DNA from: Picochlorum sp. SENEW3 | Lineage: Eukaryota | Assembly: GCA_034226945.1 (NCBI GenBank) | Contig: CP120453.1 | Coordinates: 1,116,001 to 1,180,000, forward strand | Direction: 5' to 3' | Length of the DNA: 64,000 nucleotides | Part shown: positions 3,789 to 14,800 of the stretch, piece by piece | Layout: the number at the start of each line of letters is the position of its first letter | Position numbering within the stretch: position 1 is the first letter of the stretch | The notes under the pieces: generated by a model | The model's database searches: none | The model's input: only the letters and a program-made list of their open reading frames with translations | Told to the model about the DNA's origin: nothing | Program-made: the position numbers and the translations under genes

Positions 3789-4307
3789 CAACTCTACTTA
3801 TGCTGCTATCTAGGAAGAAAAAAAGACTGGGAGCATTCTTTAGTTTGGGTTGAACCACACTCTATTAGTAGTAAAGTATACTTTACACAGCACACTTCCT
3901 CATGCCAATCACGATGATGCTCCTGGGTGTCACTCATCACACACATGCAGTATACTATTTTCAACATGATTGCTGATACATTGATGCGCTCTCAATAATT
4001 GACTCGAGGTTGTGGTTTAAAGTATTATTTACGGAGTCCAACGACGCGTGACCAGACATGGCCATGTGAAGAAAAGTCACCCGACTGCTGCAACTCTCAG
4101 TAGTATTAGACTATATTTCCGAAAAACTCGTAACTTATTGGGATTCGGTTGATCTGCGTGTGCTGTGTGGATCGTCAGGGGGTGGATGCCACTGTCGTTG
4201 CTGGTATAACGACGACTCGTGCAGAATTGCATCAGTCTGTAATCGACGCGATAGACGTGCGGATACATTGCATCAGTGTAACATAGTGCTATAAAAAGCA
4301 TTGAAAT

Positions 4308-5795
4308 ATGGCTGGAACTGGAACGCTGTCGCCTCCCCTTGCGACGGCGTTGGGAACGTATTTTGTATGGACGTGTCTCTTTTTGCTGGGTCACCTGAGG
4401 GACTTTTTACGCAACATGTTCTTCAGCCGGACCAAGAAGAAGGGATATGCACCCATCAGGCAGGACTATGAGGATTTTTACACCCGTCGAATGTACTATA
4501 GGGTTCATGATTGTTGGAATAGACCTATTTGTAGTGCTCCAACAAACTGGATTGATGTTATGGAGCGGTCAGAGGTGAATGGCCAGAATCCCATCAATGT
4601 GACAGGGAGAACGATTCGATGTTTGAATTTAGGATCGTATAATTATCTAGGTTTTGCTGCGCATGATGCATATTGCACGCCACGAGTGAATGCCTGTATG
4701 AAGGCATATGGGTGGGGTCCTTGTAGCAGTCGTGGCGATGCTGGGACGCTTCCTGTGCATGTGCAGCTGGAGAAGGAGATGGCAGAGTATTTGGGAAAGG
4801 AAGATTGCATTACATGTGGGATGGGATTTGCGACGAATTCGACCTTTATTCCAGTGTTGGCTGAGAAGGGGACATTGTTCCTCTCTGATGCTTTGAACCA
4901 TGCATCTATTGTGTCGGGAGTGAGAGGGAGCGGAGCCAAAGTAAAAGTGTTCAGTCATAATGAACCAGAGCAGCTCGAGGCAATTTTGAGAGCTGTTATC
5001 GCTGAGGGGCAGCCACGGACAGGTCGTCCATGGAAGAAGATTATCATTATTATTGAAGGGATATATTCCATGGAGGGTGAGATGGCCAAACTGAAGGAGA
5101 TTGTGGAGATTAAGAAGAAATACAAAGCATATCTGTATCTTGATGAGGCGCACAGTATTGGAGCGCTCGGAGCGACAGGGCGTGGCGTGTGTGAGGCATT
5201 CGGAGTGGATTCAAAAGATGTGGATATTATGATGGGGACATTCACCAAGAGTTTTGGATCGTGTGGTGGCTATATTGCTGGAGATAAGAAGTTAATAGAT
5301 TACTTGAGGGCACATTGTGCTGCTCATTTGTATTCTACGGCCATGTCGGGTCCTGCCGTAGAGATGGTCTTGTCAGCCCTCCGGGTTGTGAGAGGTATGG
5401 ATGGAACGACATCTGGCAAGGATAAGATTGAGAGGCTCAGGAAGAATTCGAATTATTTCAGAGGAAAGTTGTTAGAGATGGGATTGAATGTTCTTGGTGA
5501 TTGGGACTCTCCAGTCATGCCGATAATGATGTTTAAACCTACATCGCTCGTGGCCTGTAGCAGGGAGATGCTGAAGCGTGGTGTAGCAGTGGTGGTGGTT
5601 GGGTTCCCTGCGACGCCATTGTTGACAGCAAGGGTGAGGGTCTGTATATCTGCATGTCATACAAAAGAGGACTTGGATTTCGCTCTAGATATGTTCAGAG
5701 ATGTGGGAAATCTTCTGGGCATTGCATATCGATCCAAAGACAATTTGAAGCACCTGACAGCAGCAAGAAATTCAGGTGTTGAGCTCATGCTTTGA
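4308..5795 (+). CDS. LCB2: Serine palmitoyltransferase subunit 2
   Basis: NLGSYNYLGF, DEAHSIGA, GTFTKSFG PLP-lysine motif, GFPATP. Confidence 0.95.
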   Translation: MAGTGTLSPPLATALGTYFVWTCLFLLGHLRDFLRNMFFSRTKKKGYAPIRQDYEDFYTRRMYYRVHDCWNRPICSAPTNWIDVMERSEVNGQNPINVTGRTIRCLNLGSYNYLGFAAHDAYCTPRVNACMKAYGWGPCSSRGDAGTLPVHVQLEKEMAEYLGKEDCITCGMGFATNSTFIPVLAEKGTLFLSDALNHASIVSGVRGSGAKVKVFSHNEPEQLEAILRAVIAEGQPRTGRPWKKIIIIIEGIYSMEGEMAKLKEIVEIKKKYKAYLYLDEAHSIGALGATGRGVCEAFGVDSKDVDIMMGTFTKSFGSCGGYIAGDKKLIDYLRAHCAAHLYSTAMSGPAVEMVLSALRVVRGMDGTTSGKDKIERLRKNSNYFRGKLLEMGLNVLGDWDSPVMPIMMFKPTSLVACSREMLKRGVAVVVVGFPATPLLTARVRVCISACHTKEDLDFALDMFRDVGNLLGIAYRSKDNLKHLTAARNSGVELML

Positions 5796-5878: not shown

Positions 5879-8800
5879 TTAGTGCACGAGGTCCTTGTGC
5901 TGTTTCGTTCTGGTGAGGTCCTTGAGGTTGGCTGTTGCAGCTTCAATGTCCTTGGCATTGAAAATGGCCCTCACGACAGCGACTCCATCAGCACCACTCT
6001 CTTGTAAAGTGCGAGATGCGTTTGTATCATCTATACCTCCAATTGCAACAACAGGGATGGAAACGTGCTCTTTAATCTGCCTGACACCATGGGTTCCTAT
6101 GACTGAGGAGTCTTTCGTTATTGTGGGGTAGGTTGCCCCACATCCAACATAATCTGCTCCATCACGCTGCGCTTTGAGAGCCAATTCTACCGTTTTGCAC
6201 GACACCCCTACAATTTTATCCTGTCCAATCATTTTGCGGACATGTGCTGCAGGAATATCACCCTGTCCTACATGAACTCCACATGCATCTGCAGCTATTG
6301 CCACATCAACCCTATCATTCACGATAACCTTGACACCTGCAGGTCTGCAGAGCCGTACTATTTTGGACACAATACGGGTCAATCTACCTCCTTCAGATAC
6401 CTTATCGCGTATCTGAATGACTGTAGCACCTCCAGCGATGACAGATTGCATTGTTTGAAGAATTTCTTCATCTGATCGATCTTCTGATGTTGTGCTTGGG
6501 CTTGTCACCGCATAAAGAGAAACATCAACGGGATTGGGAACCCGAGCCGTCTGTGGGGATCTAGGCCAGTCATATTGACCGTATGACAGGTTCATTGGCT
6601 TTTGATCCCCCTGTCCTATATTCAATCCTGAGGATCGTTCCATGGCCCTCCAGACAAACTTCTTGGCCTTGTCAACAGCATGGAGGACATTCTCCCCCTG
6701 TGATACGTATGATGCAATGGCAGAAGCTAATGAGCAACCTGTACCATGATTATTTGTAGCATTCAGAAGAGGTGTGGAAAATTCGACAAATTCTTTCCCA
6801 TCAAACAATACGTCAATGGCATTGGATGAACCGTCCTGCAAATGGCCTCCTTTAATGAGAACATATCTAGGACCAAACTTGTACAGTTTCTCCGCGGCCA
6901 GTTTCATCGAATCCACAGAATCAATCACAATATTGTCATCGAGGAGATGTATTGCTTCAGGAATATTCGGAGTCACGACCGTGGCCACGGGGAACAAGTG
7001 CTCCTTCATGGCATCAATGATGCCTTGCTCTGCCAGAGATGACCCAGAGCTCGATGCCAAAACCGGATCCAAAACGATCGGCGGCCTTGATGGCATTCGT
7101 TTCACAGCCTCGGAGACTGCTATCACATTATCAACCGATCCAAGCATTCCAATTTTAATACAGTCCGCTCCGATATCAGTGTAGACATATCTGATCTGGT
7201 CTTGGACAATGTCTGAGGGAATGTTGTATATTGATTCCACACCAACTGTATTTTGCACGGTGATGGCAGCAACAGCATTTGTGGCAAATGAACCACACGC
7301 TGTGCATGTCTTGATGTCGGCCTGCAAACCAGCACCTCCTCCAGAATCACTTCCAGAGATGAGCATCACTCTGGGAACATGGCTGACTGACGCAGTCTCT
7401 TCTCGCTCTGAGCACCAACTCTCTGCAGATACTACCCCATATATTTCATCCCAAGAATTCGTCTGATATAAAACCTTTCCTGAACCATCACTATTCGAGT
7501 TATAGACAAAGTCTTCCAGCGGGAGAACAGGTATTCCTGCTATCCTCAGTACTGACATGAGTGTTTGGTTCTCTCCAAAGATGATTCCCATGGATGCCTC
7601 CATCAAAGAGCCAATGTCCGTGACCGAATCTCCCACATATATTGAAAAATCGCTTTCTTTCTGCAATTGAATCATAATTTTGGCTTTATCTGTCGCATTC
7701 TCGCATTGCGTGTGCACCAAACCTGTACTCCTATCACCACCATCAAATTCCATCCTGTTGGCTATGATGTGGACGACACCAGGTCGTTCTTCCATATCAA
7801 CCGATGCGAGATCTGAGACTACTTCTACCGCTATACCGTGTCTTTGGAATACCTTTTCAATCATCTCCGATGACCAATTCACGGACACGACTGCTGCATG
7901 CATTCCACAGTCAAGAGCATGCTGCAGTGTTTCAGGGCACCTAGGCTGCATGGCAATACCGTTGGCAGACTTCTGCAGCGATTCAGGAGTGGCTCCTGAT
8001 AAGAGGGACGATTCAAAACAAACCTTATTCCTGTAGCTATCAAATTTCGACACTTCCATCAGGAACTCGGCCAACCATTCTTGTCCCTTCACAGGAGAGG
8101 CTCCCAATCCCTCAGGAACCAATCGCCCCAAAAGATCCTCACGCTCAGACACATACTCACTCAAAAGTTTCTTATATAGCAATTCTTTATGTTGTCTCTC
8201 TTCGGGACCAACAGAATCACCATGATATGCTGCATCAACAATTTTCGAGATTGTGTCCCCCTGGGAAGAAGTTTCATCAAAATCAACCACCAAAATGCCA
8301 CGACCCTTGTTTATTTTCGGCTCAGTGTTTGCTCCAAAGAACTGGAGCTCCTTCTTCATCGCATAGGAGTAATGTTGATGGCAACGATCTGCACAGACAA
8401 GGCAAAACAGTTGTAACCACCTCCAACTGACGGACAGCCAAATCACAATTTTGATTCACACCATGCTTTGTTGCAGGTAATACTGCTATATATTGATTTT
8501 TTATCAATATATGGTGTGTATCACGCGGCAAAAAGACCGAATGGTGCCTCAGCCAGTGGCTGCTTGGCCGAGTGCCTTGTTGACATGTCAACGCCTTGAC
8601 GACCATTCGCAGCATAATTACGACATTATAAAGTGCAATTATCCACAATATAATTTATTGTAATTTTTTAATGCCAGTACCGTACCTTTTGTGATAGCAT
8701 CATGCGATGCTACATCCAACACAGATTCTGCCATTGAAACACACCTCAGAAAATGGTCAGAGCTGTATTCGAGTATCCATTTTCCATAGGGATGGTCTTC

Positions 8801-9466
8801 AGGATCTCTTCCGTACTTCTCAAAAGCTATAGTCTTGATTTTTCTCGCAACCTCTGCGTAGAGCCTGAAGCAGGGCAACAAGGAGGAGGCAACATGAACT
8901 GCCCCATCATTTCCTGATGGATTTGAAGCAACACGGGCCAAAAATTCTGTATATAACGATGTCGCCCACATAATATCATCATGTGAGAGATTTTCAAGGT
9001 CAATAAAGGTACCATGGATGTTGTCTAGTTCAGTTTCAACAGTTTCCAATAGATGAGAGATGTCAGCACATATGCCTGTTTTGTGGTCATCTGCAATCAT
9101 TGGGTCAACGGCAGCGAGTTGGAGCATTGTCCTAATGGCTTCACGAAATACACTTAAATAGTATACATCTTGAGACAAGTACTTTTCGAATCGTTCTCTT
9201 GGCAATGTTCCGTCTGCAATGCCCCTGACAAATGGGTTGAACAAGCTGGCATAATACAGATGTTGATTCTCTTCCCAAAGCACGCGTGTTGCATTCGACG
9301 TGGCCTTTGTCACCTGAACAATCTTTGTTGCACTTTGGGACACACTAATTGCGTGCCTTTTGCACAAAGGGGGAGTCGCTTTAGAGAAGAAGCAACCCTT
9401 GCTTATTGAGCCCACCCTACCTGGCATGAAAGGGATACTGCAGAGACTGCAGGGAAGCGATTTCAT
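5879..9466 (-). CDS. Four-domain thiamine enzyme: TenA + HAD phosphatase (TH2-like) fused to HMP(-P) kinase ThiD + thiamine-phosphate synthase ThiE (TH1-like); exons 9466-8686 and 8388-5879, ~1096 aa
   Basis: TenA: YLSQDVYYL, LLPCFRLY, PYGKWI; HAD: DFDET, YVGDSVTD; ThiD: GSDSGGGAGLQAD, HGTGC; ThiE: QIRDK, NDRVD, GVHVGQGD, AIGGI. A GT..AG intron at 8685-8389 joins the two ORFs in phase 1 (AAA G|AT) and restores the TenA last helix (AMKKELQFF). Confidence 0.88.
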
Positions 9467-9566
9467 ACTTTTTGATCGATAATTATATAAAATATAGTAA
9501 ATGCAGCTTCCATAATGACCGCATTCTCGAGGCGATGACAATTCTAGAACACGAGGAATGGCTATG

Positions 9567-9616
9567 ATTTGTCACAATATGGCACTATTATTTGTCACAA
9601 ATGATGATTTGTCACA
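9567..9616. promoter_or_regulatory. Three copies of ATTTGTCACA in the divergent promoter of the thiamine genes
   Basis: Exact 10-mers at 9567-9576, 9590-9599, 9607-9616. Confidence 0.55.
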
Positions 9617-9816
9617 TTGTGATCCGGGGCAACCGTCAAATGCTCCAACATCCAGCCTCCAGTCCATCTCAATCTATTATTAAATACTTTGGATTTTGTA
9701 TCAGAGTGCGTACTTTGTACCAGATGTCATTCAACATGCCTGCATGCACATGCTTGACCTGACTGTGTATATATGCTCAGCCTGACCCTCGTTTTCTACC
9801 CAATGTAGGATATTGA

Positions 9817-10875
<1,059 letters not shown>

Positions 10876-11802: not shown

Positions 11803-14800
11803 ATGACTCGCTGCCAGGCGCTTGCGTTCGTGGTACTTTTTGGGGTTTCTTTAACAGCATGTTATGGTGCGTGGCCTCGGACTGACTGCCTTGCCTACTA
11901 GTGCCCTTGTTTGATCACAAGTTATATAAATATATATATTTATATGCGTGTGAATGGCTTTGTTGATGTGCTGCAGGCAAGTTGAGGGATGGCGAGTATG
12001 TCGTCCAATATGTTGGAACTGGAGACTGCAAGGGTATGTGGTACTTTTGATTCGGCGATGGACCGAGGTCGCGTGAATACGGTGTGGACGAGAGCCAATC
12101 ACTGTACTGATCTATCTATGCAGGACGGTATCTATCCTATCAGGAATGGGGAAAGGATGCGTCTGGAAGGGTGCGGTTGCAGTCAGCAGAAGCAAAGAGG
12201 CCAATGACGTGGCGGGTGGTGAACTTGGAAAGTAACACGTTTTCGCTCGAGGCGGTGCGTTTTTATAGTATTTTGCTATGTCATGTCCTTTAACGTATTC
12301 CGTATTCTAAGCGCGACACTGCGTGTGCCTTTGTTGCATTGCAGGTCTACAGGGCAAGATGCTGTCCTGCCAAGCTGTCCTATGCCAGGAGCTGTCGTTC
12401 AAAGTCTGTGCGTGTGCGTCGCCAAGGTTTGCTGTCGTGGGACCTGGTTCAAGTAGGGAATCGAGGAACGATATACAAGGCATTTGCCAAGGTACGCGTT
12501 TTGCTTTTATGGAAGGGCTTTGACAACAAAGATTTCCTCCATGGTATTTATGACGTGACGTTTGGAATGCAGCATCGAGAGGCCTGTACAAAGCGGCGAT
12601 CCGTGAGCCTTCTTGGTGCAGCACTCGATAGAAACAATGCCTGCAAGGATAGATCAGTCGTCCTGGATCGTCCCAGCCAGAAAGGGTTGCATTGGAGGTT
12701 TGTTCTGAGACGACCCATCCTGCCACCTCTGTCACCATCCCCACCTTTGCCACCTCCATCTCCCCCGGCTGTGGTTGCCGTGGAAGTGCCTGTGCTGAAC
12801 GTCCAGGTTTCTTTCGCCAACGAGACTGTGGAGTCCTTTGGTCCAGAGAAGCAAGCAAACCTGTGCAACAACCTGGTATCCCTGTCTGACTATGACCCTG
12901 CCCTTGTTGAGTGCAGTGTGGTGAGCGTGCGTCCAGCGACTGGCCGAGGGAGGAATCTACTCCAGTCGGGCATCGTCGCTGATAGCCAAATGACATTTCG
13001 TGTGACCGATGCATCGCAAGTGGAGGCTGCGACTCAAGCAGCGCAGGAGACAGCACAGGATTTGCAGGACCCCGAGACAGCATCTGCTGCCCTTGGAGAG
13101 GGTGCTCAGGTGGATGGAGTAGAAGAGACTTCTGAGACTGAAGAGGTTCCCGCCAACCCTCCAGAGCCGGAACCGGAACCAGAACCGGAACCAGAGCCAG
13201 AACCAGAGCCAGAACCGATTCCTGAGCCAATTCCTGAGCCAGAACCAGAGCCAGAACCGATTCCTGAGCCAATTCCTGAGCCAATTCCTGAGCCAATTCC
13301 TGAGCCAATTCCTGAGCCAATTCCTGAGCTGGAGCCAATACCCGAGCCGACTCCGCAGCCTGTGCCAGTGCCCGTGCCTGTCCCCGTACCATCACCTTCT
13401 CCTCCTCCACCTCCACCGGTCTCTCCACCTCCACCTCCACCGGTCTCTCCACCTCCACCTCCACTGGTCTCTCCTCCGCCACCTCCACCGGTCTCTCCAC
13501 CTCCACCGCCACCAGTCTCTCCTCCGCCACCGCCATCACCATATTCAACAATACCACCGCCACCACCAGTATCCCCACCGCCGCCCCCTCCATCAACCCC
13601 TTCACCTCCGACAAATGTCACGGCCACTGCCGCGAGCGAGTGCACGCAATCTATCGTAGTAACCTGGCAAGCCCCAGGAGCTGGTCCTACCATTACTGGA
13701 TATTTTGTTTCCTGCGAGTCCTCGACAGTATCTGGGGTAAATACTACTGTCCCAGAAGGTCAAAGCACCGCCACACTGACAGTCGAGGTTGGAGAAGAGT
13801 ATCAGTGCTCCGTGGCTTCTGAGGGGTCTTCAGGTTCCTCTGAGCCTGTGAATGCATTGCCGGTGACCTATGGGTACGTCACGTGTTTGAATTGATTTTG
13901 AGGATAAAAAAACTCTGATTGATACGGTGTATTGCTGCAGGTATCCAGAATCATGCAAGCCAGGAACGGTTACGACTGTACAGACAACTTTTGTGTCATA
14001 TGCAAACCGTTTCCAGAGGACCGTCGAGTGGTCAGGACCATCACCGCTACCAGAACTCCAAATCACATCATACAATGTTAATTGCAGCAGTGATGGGGAT
14101 TTCAGATTTGTACAGGAGGAGAATACAAGTACAACTCTCGGTGATGGAGTCTCTGAAAATGCCCCCTTCAATCTGGATACCTCATACAGTTGCATTGTGA
14201 CTGCCACAAATGCTGCTGGAACAGGTGCACCATCAGATCCGAGTGCCCCTTTCGTAGGTGGTAGACTTCCTCGATCAGGAGACTTCGTTGTTCCCCAAAG
14301 CTCATTTCTCGCCGAATTCGTCCCAGGACAATGGTTTTATTCCACGCTGGCAAGTGGCGGGAGTGAGATCATCACAAACCCAGTGCCAAGTGAAGGCTCT
14401 CCAGGGGATCAGGTGGTCGAGTTAACCACTACGTGTAGCAATGACGACCTTGCCGGCATAAAAGTATCTTACTATCCTGGATCTATTTTCAATGGCATGC
14501 TACTCTCTGAGTTTTTGGCCAACTTTAGCAGCATGTCGTACAAGTATTACAAGGTGGGAGATGACCCTCAAGGATGTACTAGTAGTGTCACCTCTCCTAC
14601 ATTTAAATTCGAGGTCTTCTCACAAAAAGCAGACGATAACGATGAGCCATCCTACACTACATTCCTCTGGGAGCCATATACAGCTCCCCCGCTCAATGGG
14701 AGTCCAGCTCCTTCTGGATCCTGGCAAAGTGTCCAGGTATCAAAGTCAGATGGTACAGCTACATTTGATGGAAATGGTGGATGGAGATCAACGAGAGACT

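Follow-up and report, generated by a model that had tools for sequence, protein, structure and literature searches.

Land plants encode the four thiamine enzymes considered here in two genes, TH2 and TH1. What, then, is made from a single locus of the green alga Picochlorum sp. SENEW3 in which the TenA, HAD, ThiD and ThiE domains follow one another: one polypeptide for one organelle, or more than one product? The locus lies on the minus strand of a 64,000-nucleotide (nt) stretch of contig CP120453.1 (the window; positions 1,116,001 to 1,180,000 of the forward strand, assembly GCA_034226945.1). We propose that this one nuclear gene would serve a Picochlorum-type alga both as TH2 (TenA-HAD) and as TH1 (ThiD-ThiE), and that it would give two products, a four-domain protein of the plastid (isoform A) and a shorter protein that starts within the intron (isoform B). 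We put the probability of this explanation at about 0.7. As an architecture, the fusion recombines known parts; it occurs widely among green algae and already stands in annotations without comment. More surprising is that the intron probably houses a second first exon, which would give the shorter form a targeting peptide of its own.

A preliminary description of this DNA had joined two open reading frames through a GT-AG intron into a protein of about 1096 amino acids with a transit-like N-terminus. This reading holds, while the frame lengths that it gave, 300 and 855 residues, have to be replaced by 310 and 858 residues from stop to stop, the first frame having 275 residues from its ATG. The two exons (Table 1) join into 1096 codons followed by one terminal stop. 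The intron between them has a strong GT donor (AAG/GTACGG) and a pyrimidine-rich AG acceptor (TGCAG/), and contains stops in all three frames. Because many alternative GT/AG pairs preserve the frame, the frame alone is little proof of this long intron, and it is homology that directly supports the structure. An NCBI record (P0001, 'Thiamine biosynthetic bifunctional enzyme TH1 [Picochlorum sp. SENEW3]', 1096 residues) has the identical join. Structures of Bacillus subtilis TenA align to residues 74-281 without a large gap at the junction, and the last helix of that enzyme, with its conserved Glu, maps to the start of exon 2 (E274), so that exon 1 alone encodes an incomplete TenA domain. In L003, a metagenome relative 41 to 71% identical to the fusion protein depending on the domain, a GT-AG intron of 84 nt interrupts the same codon position in the same phase and the product has 1100 residues, and the orthologues are collinear in the alignment across the exon junction. 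Isoform A is thus very probably real. Its residues 1-58 include no Asp or Glu and 24% Ser/Thr, in keeping with a transit-like N-terminus. An origin of the long intron from a repeat or transposon was rejected, as a search for near-identical sequences found one copy in the genome.

Domain matches and motifs directly support the four-domain polypeptide. The E-values are 1e-82 for ThiD, 2e-54 for ThiE and 3.5e-12 for TenA (PF03070, above cut-off). The ThiD kinase reaches 270 bits with TIGR00097 (cut-off 205) and carries the glycine-rich and anion-hole motifs at residues 606-614 and 808-812; ThiE reaches 190 bits with TIGR00693 (cut-off 145) and has the conserved residues N951-D952, S990 and K1019. 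TenA, assigned to TenA_C (thiaminase II type), stays below the TIGR04306 equivalog cut-off (71.7 bits versus 130), a value that none of the five algal fusions scanned reaches. Its D100, C199 (in the motif LLPC) and E274 align with active-site residues of B. subtilis TenA, where Asp44 and Glu205 are the partners of the cysteine. The active-site cysteine of the B. subtilis enzyme is Cys135 (PMC5635689). The HAD domain is weak in Pfam (E 0.002) and matches the HAD-IB model TIGR01488 with an E-value of 7e-8, below cut-off; motifs I-IV (DxD, S/T, K, GDxxxD) are all present as D296/D298, S429, K495 and D514/D518. In a structure search with the HAD profile, in which two of the three top rows were designed proteins and were discounted, the best natural matches are phosphoserine phosphatases. 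By profile and motif, this is a TH2-type HAD-IB phosphatase domain, and the TenA cysteine and HAD aspartates, which had been described as intact, are found in place.

The genome has one match each for TenA, for the TH2-type HAD family and for ThiC, and one full-length match each for ThiD and ThiE, beside three (ThiD) and one (ThiE) partial, much weaker ones. As the gene holds the sole full-length TenA, HAD, ThiD and ThiE, it combines the TH1 and the TH2 of this alga in one locus. Four activities are expected from what is known of the families. TenA would hydrolyze amino-hydroxymethylpyrimidine to hydroxymethylpyrimidine (HMP), ThiD would convert HMP and its phosphate (HMP-P) to the pyrophosphate (HMP-PP), ThiE would couple HMP-PP with thiazole phosphate to thiamine monophosphate (TMP), and the HAD domain would release thiamine. 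Isoform A, from which the long intron is removed, would carry out these steps most likely in the plastid, beside THIC and THI4.

Is isoform A the only product? Four sequencing runs were compared with the locus, the metatranscriptome runs X7-X10 (share under 0.1) being set aside. DNA is the probable source of X1 and X2, and the cover of X13 extends over the intergenic stretch as it would for DNA; X3 was treated as RNA because it lacks intergenic cover and shows a splice. The sole splice joint listed in X3 connects 8462 to 8388, skipping 73 nt between a GT and an AG, and an unspliced record is also present. Read from the ATG at 9466, this short splice retains 224 nt of the intron and leads to a stop at 275 residues. 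Read from an ATG inside the intron, at 8615, it is in frame with exon 2 and predicts a protein of 887 residues, composed of a 51-residue leader, the remnant helix of TenA, HAD, ThiD and ThiE, and thus without a functional TenA. Joint and ATG together define an alternative splice form with a further, predicted N-terminus. In a post hoc test, 0.5% of 20,000 shuffles had an open ATG in frame 51 or more codons upstream, and the candidate exon has a coding-like GC content of 46% and is preceded by a stretch of 26% GC.

Mitochondrial presequences are basic and amphipathic. The leader of isoform B has four Arg, two Lys and one acidic residue in 40, and its hydrophobic moment is 0.60, versus 0.41 for the leader of isoform A and 0.43 for that of THI4. 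Leaky scanning past the 22 AUGs of exon 1 is unlikely, and isoform B would require an internal transcription start. We hypothesize that the intron grew in the Picochlorum lineage and now holds the probable second first exon, and that an internal start yields isoform B (HAD-ThiD-ThiE), whose own basic leader would most likely direct it to the mitochondria, where plant TH2 is also reported. We lean slightly towards translation of isoform B; its dispatch to a different compartment is a tentative proposal. A separately targeted HAD is supported by P0009, a JGI Picochlorum model with the order leader-HAD-ThiD-ThiE, and by five stand-alone HADs in the Picochlorum clade. The earlier suggestion of one polypeptide in one organelle is probably incomplete, because the short splice in RNA predicts a TenA-less isoform with another leader and because 9 of 10 named orthologues have no N-terminal extension as annotated.

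Several observations weigh against this two-product explanation. Only one of the four runs behaved as RNA, and its strain differs by about 2 to 3%. In that run no record crossing the long junction (8686/8388) is listed, and the binned depths are reproduced without an extra record, so that such a record is absent or filtered. Contig 30 of X3 passes without a break out of exon 1 into the intron, which shows that some RNA retains the intron. No transcription start is mapped inside the intron, contigs being unable to show starts, and the 14-nt promoter motif of Table 1 is absent upstream of the ATG at 8615. The leader metrics discriminate poorly, a hydrophobic moment of 0.67 being found for the leader of isoform A in L003. 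Within the group, too, isoform B lacks conservation, as the 84-nt intron of L003 is too small to hold a second exon. The X3 contig depths (18 in exon 1, 18.5 in the 5' part of the intron, 42 at the short joint and 14 unspliced) were not used to rank the isoforms. The start of contig 30, at 8715, lies exactly 30 nt before the long donor, the position at which a 31-mer graph is cut at a branch; a hole inside the coding exon (6580-6618) resembles the one near the long donor, and the contig start is a hint only. The hole itself (8716-8752) is evidence neither for nor against the long junction.

Could the 73-nt splice be non-productive, regulatory or noisy, with the four-domain protein as the only product and expression perhaps lowered when thiamine is plentiful? 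Riboswitches control splice-site choice in fungi and Chlamydomonas, and two donors here share one acceptor, the retained 224 nt carrying the stop that truncates TenA. The long intron also folds far better than its shuffles (z -4.29, 0 of 200), of 60 windows taken along the gene the most strongly folded one (8580-8461, z -4.69) falls within it, and pairing takes in most of the proximal donor (0.5-0.95); the distal donor is, however, partly paired as well, and the L003 intron is unstructured (z +1.8). The contig that is unbroken from exon 1 into the intron fits a non-productive splice, whereas an open 51-codon leader with an in-frame ATG is improbable by chance. A thiamine pyrophosphate (TPP) riboswitch or other known RNA in the long intron was rejected, as there is no RF00059 match at E-values up to 10 and no Rfam family, and the genome's only TPP match lies elsewhere. 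No homologous long intron for a covariation analysis was retrieved (a single Picochlorum-like locus came from the metagenome scan, and its intron is short), so the intron structure is without comparative support. On balance we regard a purely non-productive splice as unlikely, although it survives better than any other alternative. Eukaryotic TPP-riboswitch introns are known from THI4 and THIC of Chlamydomonas and NMT1 of Neurospora; the intron studied here resembles them in its structure, its alternative splice sites and its place in a thiamine gene, and differs in having no TPP aptamer. As a side observation, the frame at the 3' end of the intron (window 8389-8448) has a near-identical translation in P0002, a 91% relative, which hints at conserved intron sequence.

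A further alternative is that HAD or TenA, or both, are inactive scaffolds in the four-domain protein, which would then work as TH1 only. The weak HAD family scores and the TenA score below the TIGR04306 cut-off fit this idea, as do two related fusions, P0010 and P0011, with degenerate HAD motifs. These two also count against our explanation in its general form, since the four activities are not universal among fusions. The four HAD motifs and three TenA residues are nevertheless intact here and in most orthologues, and the genome has no other TenA or HAD of the TH2-type family, which leaves an inactive scaffold improbable. Least probable is fission in this species into a truncated TenA gene and a leader-HAD-ThiD-ThiE gene, with the long intron an annotation carried over by homology. 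The short splice is the only one listed in RNA and P0009 is a TenA-less form within the genus. Yet a product of exon 1 by itself would keep D100 and C199 but miss E274 and the final helix of TenA, relatives (91% to 56% identity) conserve this helix where exon 2 begins, the donor stands at the ancestral position seen in L003, and the start of contig 30 fits a graph branch, the similar hole in the coding exon notwithstanding.

The two-product explanation concerns a gene whose architecture is common. With the TenA-HAD half of the Raphidocelis protein as the query, 10 of 16 hits were named chlorophyte proteins with TenA, ThiD and ThiE (Raphidocelis, Scenedesmus, Gonium, Edaphochlamys, Pleodorina, Chlamydomonas schloesseri, Volvox, Haematococcus, Myrmecia and Apatococcus), from algae of the Chlorophyceae and Trebouxiophyceae. 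HAD motif I is present in all ten and motif IV in nine; the C. schloesseri protein, 33% identical over its full length, has the same four-domain order. Among 20 metagenome loci, which represent few distinct organisms, the complete series of four domains is collinear in 14; another five, on short contigs, show just TenA and HAD, and ThiE is missing from one. The 38 proteins picked from 150 listed include six unnamed ones with TenA, ThiD and ThiE and ten with TenA-HAD alone, and a search at shorter lengths gave only fragments and partial models. Judged from these sequences, the four-domain fusion is the ordinary form in the core chlorophytes sampled.

TenA-less variants are P0009 and P0022. In a quick HAD tree of 38 rows, none dropped and with long branches flagged, the five stand-alone HADs (P0149, P0150, P0151, P0154 and P0155), four of them with N-terminal extensions of their own, fall inside the Picochlorum clade with an SH-like approximate likelihood ratio test (SH-aLRT) support of 99. 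Fusions with a degenerate HAD and stand-alone, leader-bearing HADs in Picochlorum-like lineages suggest subfunctionalization. In the nine named orthologues that begin at TenA (P0016 and P0121-P0128), either first exons were missed by annotation or the protein would be cytosolic. Another observation is an unnamed protein, P0191, in which thiamine pyrophosphokinase is fused to the same HAD family.

How does the fusion relate to known systems? Its N-terminal half has the TenA-HAD order and the HAD family of Arabidopsis TH2/PALE1 (At5g32470), a likeness drawn through stand-alone, unnamed TenA-HAD proteins matched by the window's HAD. It differs from TH2 in being fused to ThiD-ThiE and in the proposed second location, reached through an alternative first exon and an isoform without TenA. 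Its C-terminal half corresponds to plant and algal TH1 (At1g22940, ThiD-ThiE), in front of which the fusion has about 590 extra residues of TenA-HAD. The ten named chlorophyte proteins, called 'TH1' or thiamine phosphate synthase, are orthologues with the same order. Yeast Thi20 (ThiD-TenA), actinobacterial ThiE-ThiD-TenA (PRK09517) and oomycete TenA-ThiD likewise join TenA to ThiD, in some cases together with ThiE, but in another order or without HAD, and the score with PRK09517 is 358, against a cut-off of 761.

Plant TH2 is reported in the cytosol and mitochondria (PMC8331165, PMC9544542); in the latter, a review, TMP is made in plastids and dephosphorylated by TH2 reported outside them, and the site of this step is called unclear. 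Algal TH1 is treated as ThiD-ThiE in PMC9544697 and PMC4260697, PMC4921024 lists TenA-HAD as a fusion, and a Picochlorum pathway survey lists only THIDE (PMC12458973). The novelty first suggested for the fusion stands in part: the architecture is widespread and already annotated as 'TH1', and provisionally no paper describing a four-domain algal protein was found in the literature searched, outside which lie key TH2 papers and most subscription papers. Green-algal 'TH1' annotations thus hide a TMP phosphatase and a salvage enzyme. A single TH2 plus TH1 chain as the normal green-algal state would make compartmentation and channelling testable with one gene, and the fusion offers a compact module for thiamine engineering. 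If confirmed, the second first exon and the lead to a riboswitch and a bZIP protein, described below, would matter more than the fusion.

Table 1. Features of the fusion gene and its shared promoter, in window positions.
Feature	Position	Strand	Remarks
Exon 1, isoform A	8686..9466	-	transit-like N-terminus (residues 1-58) and most of TenA_C (D100, C199)
Isoform A intron	8389..8685	-	297 nt, phase 1, GT-AG, single copy, fold z -4.29, no Rfam family
Exon 2, shared	5879..8388	-	last TenA helix (E274), HAD, ThiD, ThiE, stop
Candidate alternative first coding exon	8462..8615	-	ATG 8615, 51 codons, 46% GC, Arg/Lys-rich leader
AT-rich 5' part of the intron	8616..8685	-	26% GC; candidate internal promoter or 5' untranslated region of isoform B (inferred)
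73-nt GT-AG intron, alternative 5' splice site	8389..8461	-	spliced in the RNA-like run X3
HAD-IB phosphatase domain, TH2-type	7430..8302	-	about residues 290-580; motifs I-IV
ThiD HMP/HMP-P kinase domain	6596..7372	-	about residues 600-858; TIGR00097 above cut-off
ThiE thiamine-phosphate synthase domain	5927..6520	-	about residues 884-1081; TIGR00693 above cut-off
THI4/THI1 thiazole synthase	9856..10875	+	head-to-head with the fusion gene, 389 bp apart
14-nt motif WTGNRACAARTCAT, three copies	9604-9617, 9587-9600, 9564-9577	-	at most one mismatch; promoter common with THI4

The head-to-head arrangement of the fusion gene and THI4 recurs in L003, so that the two thiamine genes form a conserved cluster around one common promoter. 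The three copies of the motif WTGNRACAARTCAT in the spacer are its only matches in the 64 kb at one mismatch, and two copies are kept in L003 (-152, -129). The motif also stands upstream of THIC (-126, -96), of an NMT1/THI5-like gene (-78) and of a bZIP gene (-249; L028, L071 and L002, respectively). The pattern was built from the fusion/THI4 spacer sites and the THIC and bZIP promoters, and a genome scan with it gave 14 matches, versus 2 for a reversed control. Four of the 14 are training sites; the other ten comprise one at the NMT1/THI5-like gene (78 nt upstream), one at a probable secreted binding protein, six in long frames and two in intergenic positions near unrelated genes. The match in the NMT1/THI5-like promoter is an independent thiamine-related hit, and WTGNRACAARTCAT is a candidate site of a thiamine regulon. 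A shorter, 11-nt motif was rejected as too loose (21 matches versus 1 in the control, with 16 of the 21 inside long frames and neighbors unrelated to thiamine); among these 16, in frames called by script, one is the THIC promoter site.

The genome's only TPP-aptamer match (G000:C8:679611-679721, or L002:1501-1611; 38.5 bits, E 4e-6) is below the gathering score and has the core motifs. It lies within a predicted 480-nt GT-AG intron (L002:1409-1888) of the 252-residue bZIP gene, not of a thiamine gene. No riboswitch was found, at E-values up to 0.5, at six loci (those of THIC, the NMT1-like gene, the C5 gene described below, two other motif loci and L003). That the bZIP protein would bind the WTGNRACAARTCAT motif we purely infer. 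The widest picture is one in which the locus gives a plastid TenA-HAD-ThiD-ThiE and a mitochondrial HAD-ThiD-ThiE and forms, with THI4, THIC and the NMT1/THI5-like gene, a motif-defined regulon run by the riboswitch-bearing bZIP, and we consider it rather improbable as a whole. If it were true, the direct target of a TPP riboswitch would be a transcription factor instead of the genes for biosynthesis. We found no paper on a riboswitch-bearing bZIP gene in the literature searched, a provisional result as most subscription papers were outside it.

The NMT1/THI5-like gene (G000:C7:18000-19750; L065, L071) is present in the genome beside THIC. A motif copy at G000:C5:328057 (L070:659-672, with a near copy at about 495) precedes a protein of about 540 residues that has a signal-like N-terminus, a hydrophobic C-terminus and no Pfam hit. 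Its atlas neighbors are algal hypothetical proteins and, weakly (0.82), periplasmic binding proteins for Fe and B12. It recalls the cobalamin-acquisition protein CBA1, and it might bind a vitamin. Elsewhere in the window, a class I/II aminotransferase (4305-5795, plus strand), which resembles serine palmitoyltransferase LCB2, is convergent with the fusion gene, and a wall-type protein with Pro/Glu repeats is encoded at 12294-13895 (plus strand).

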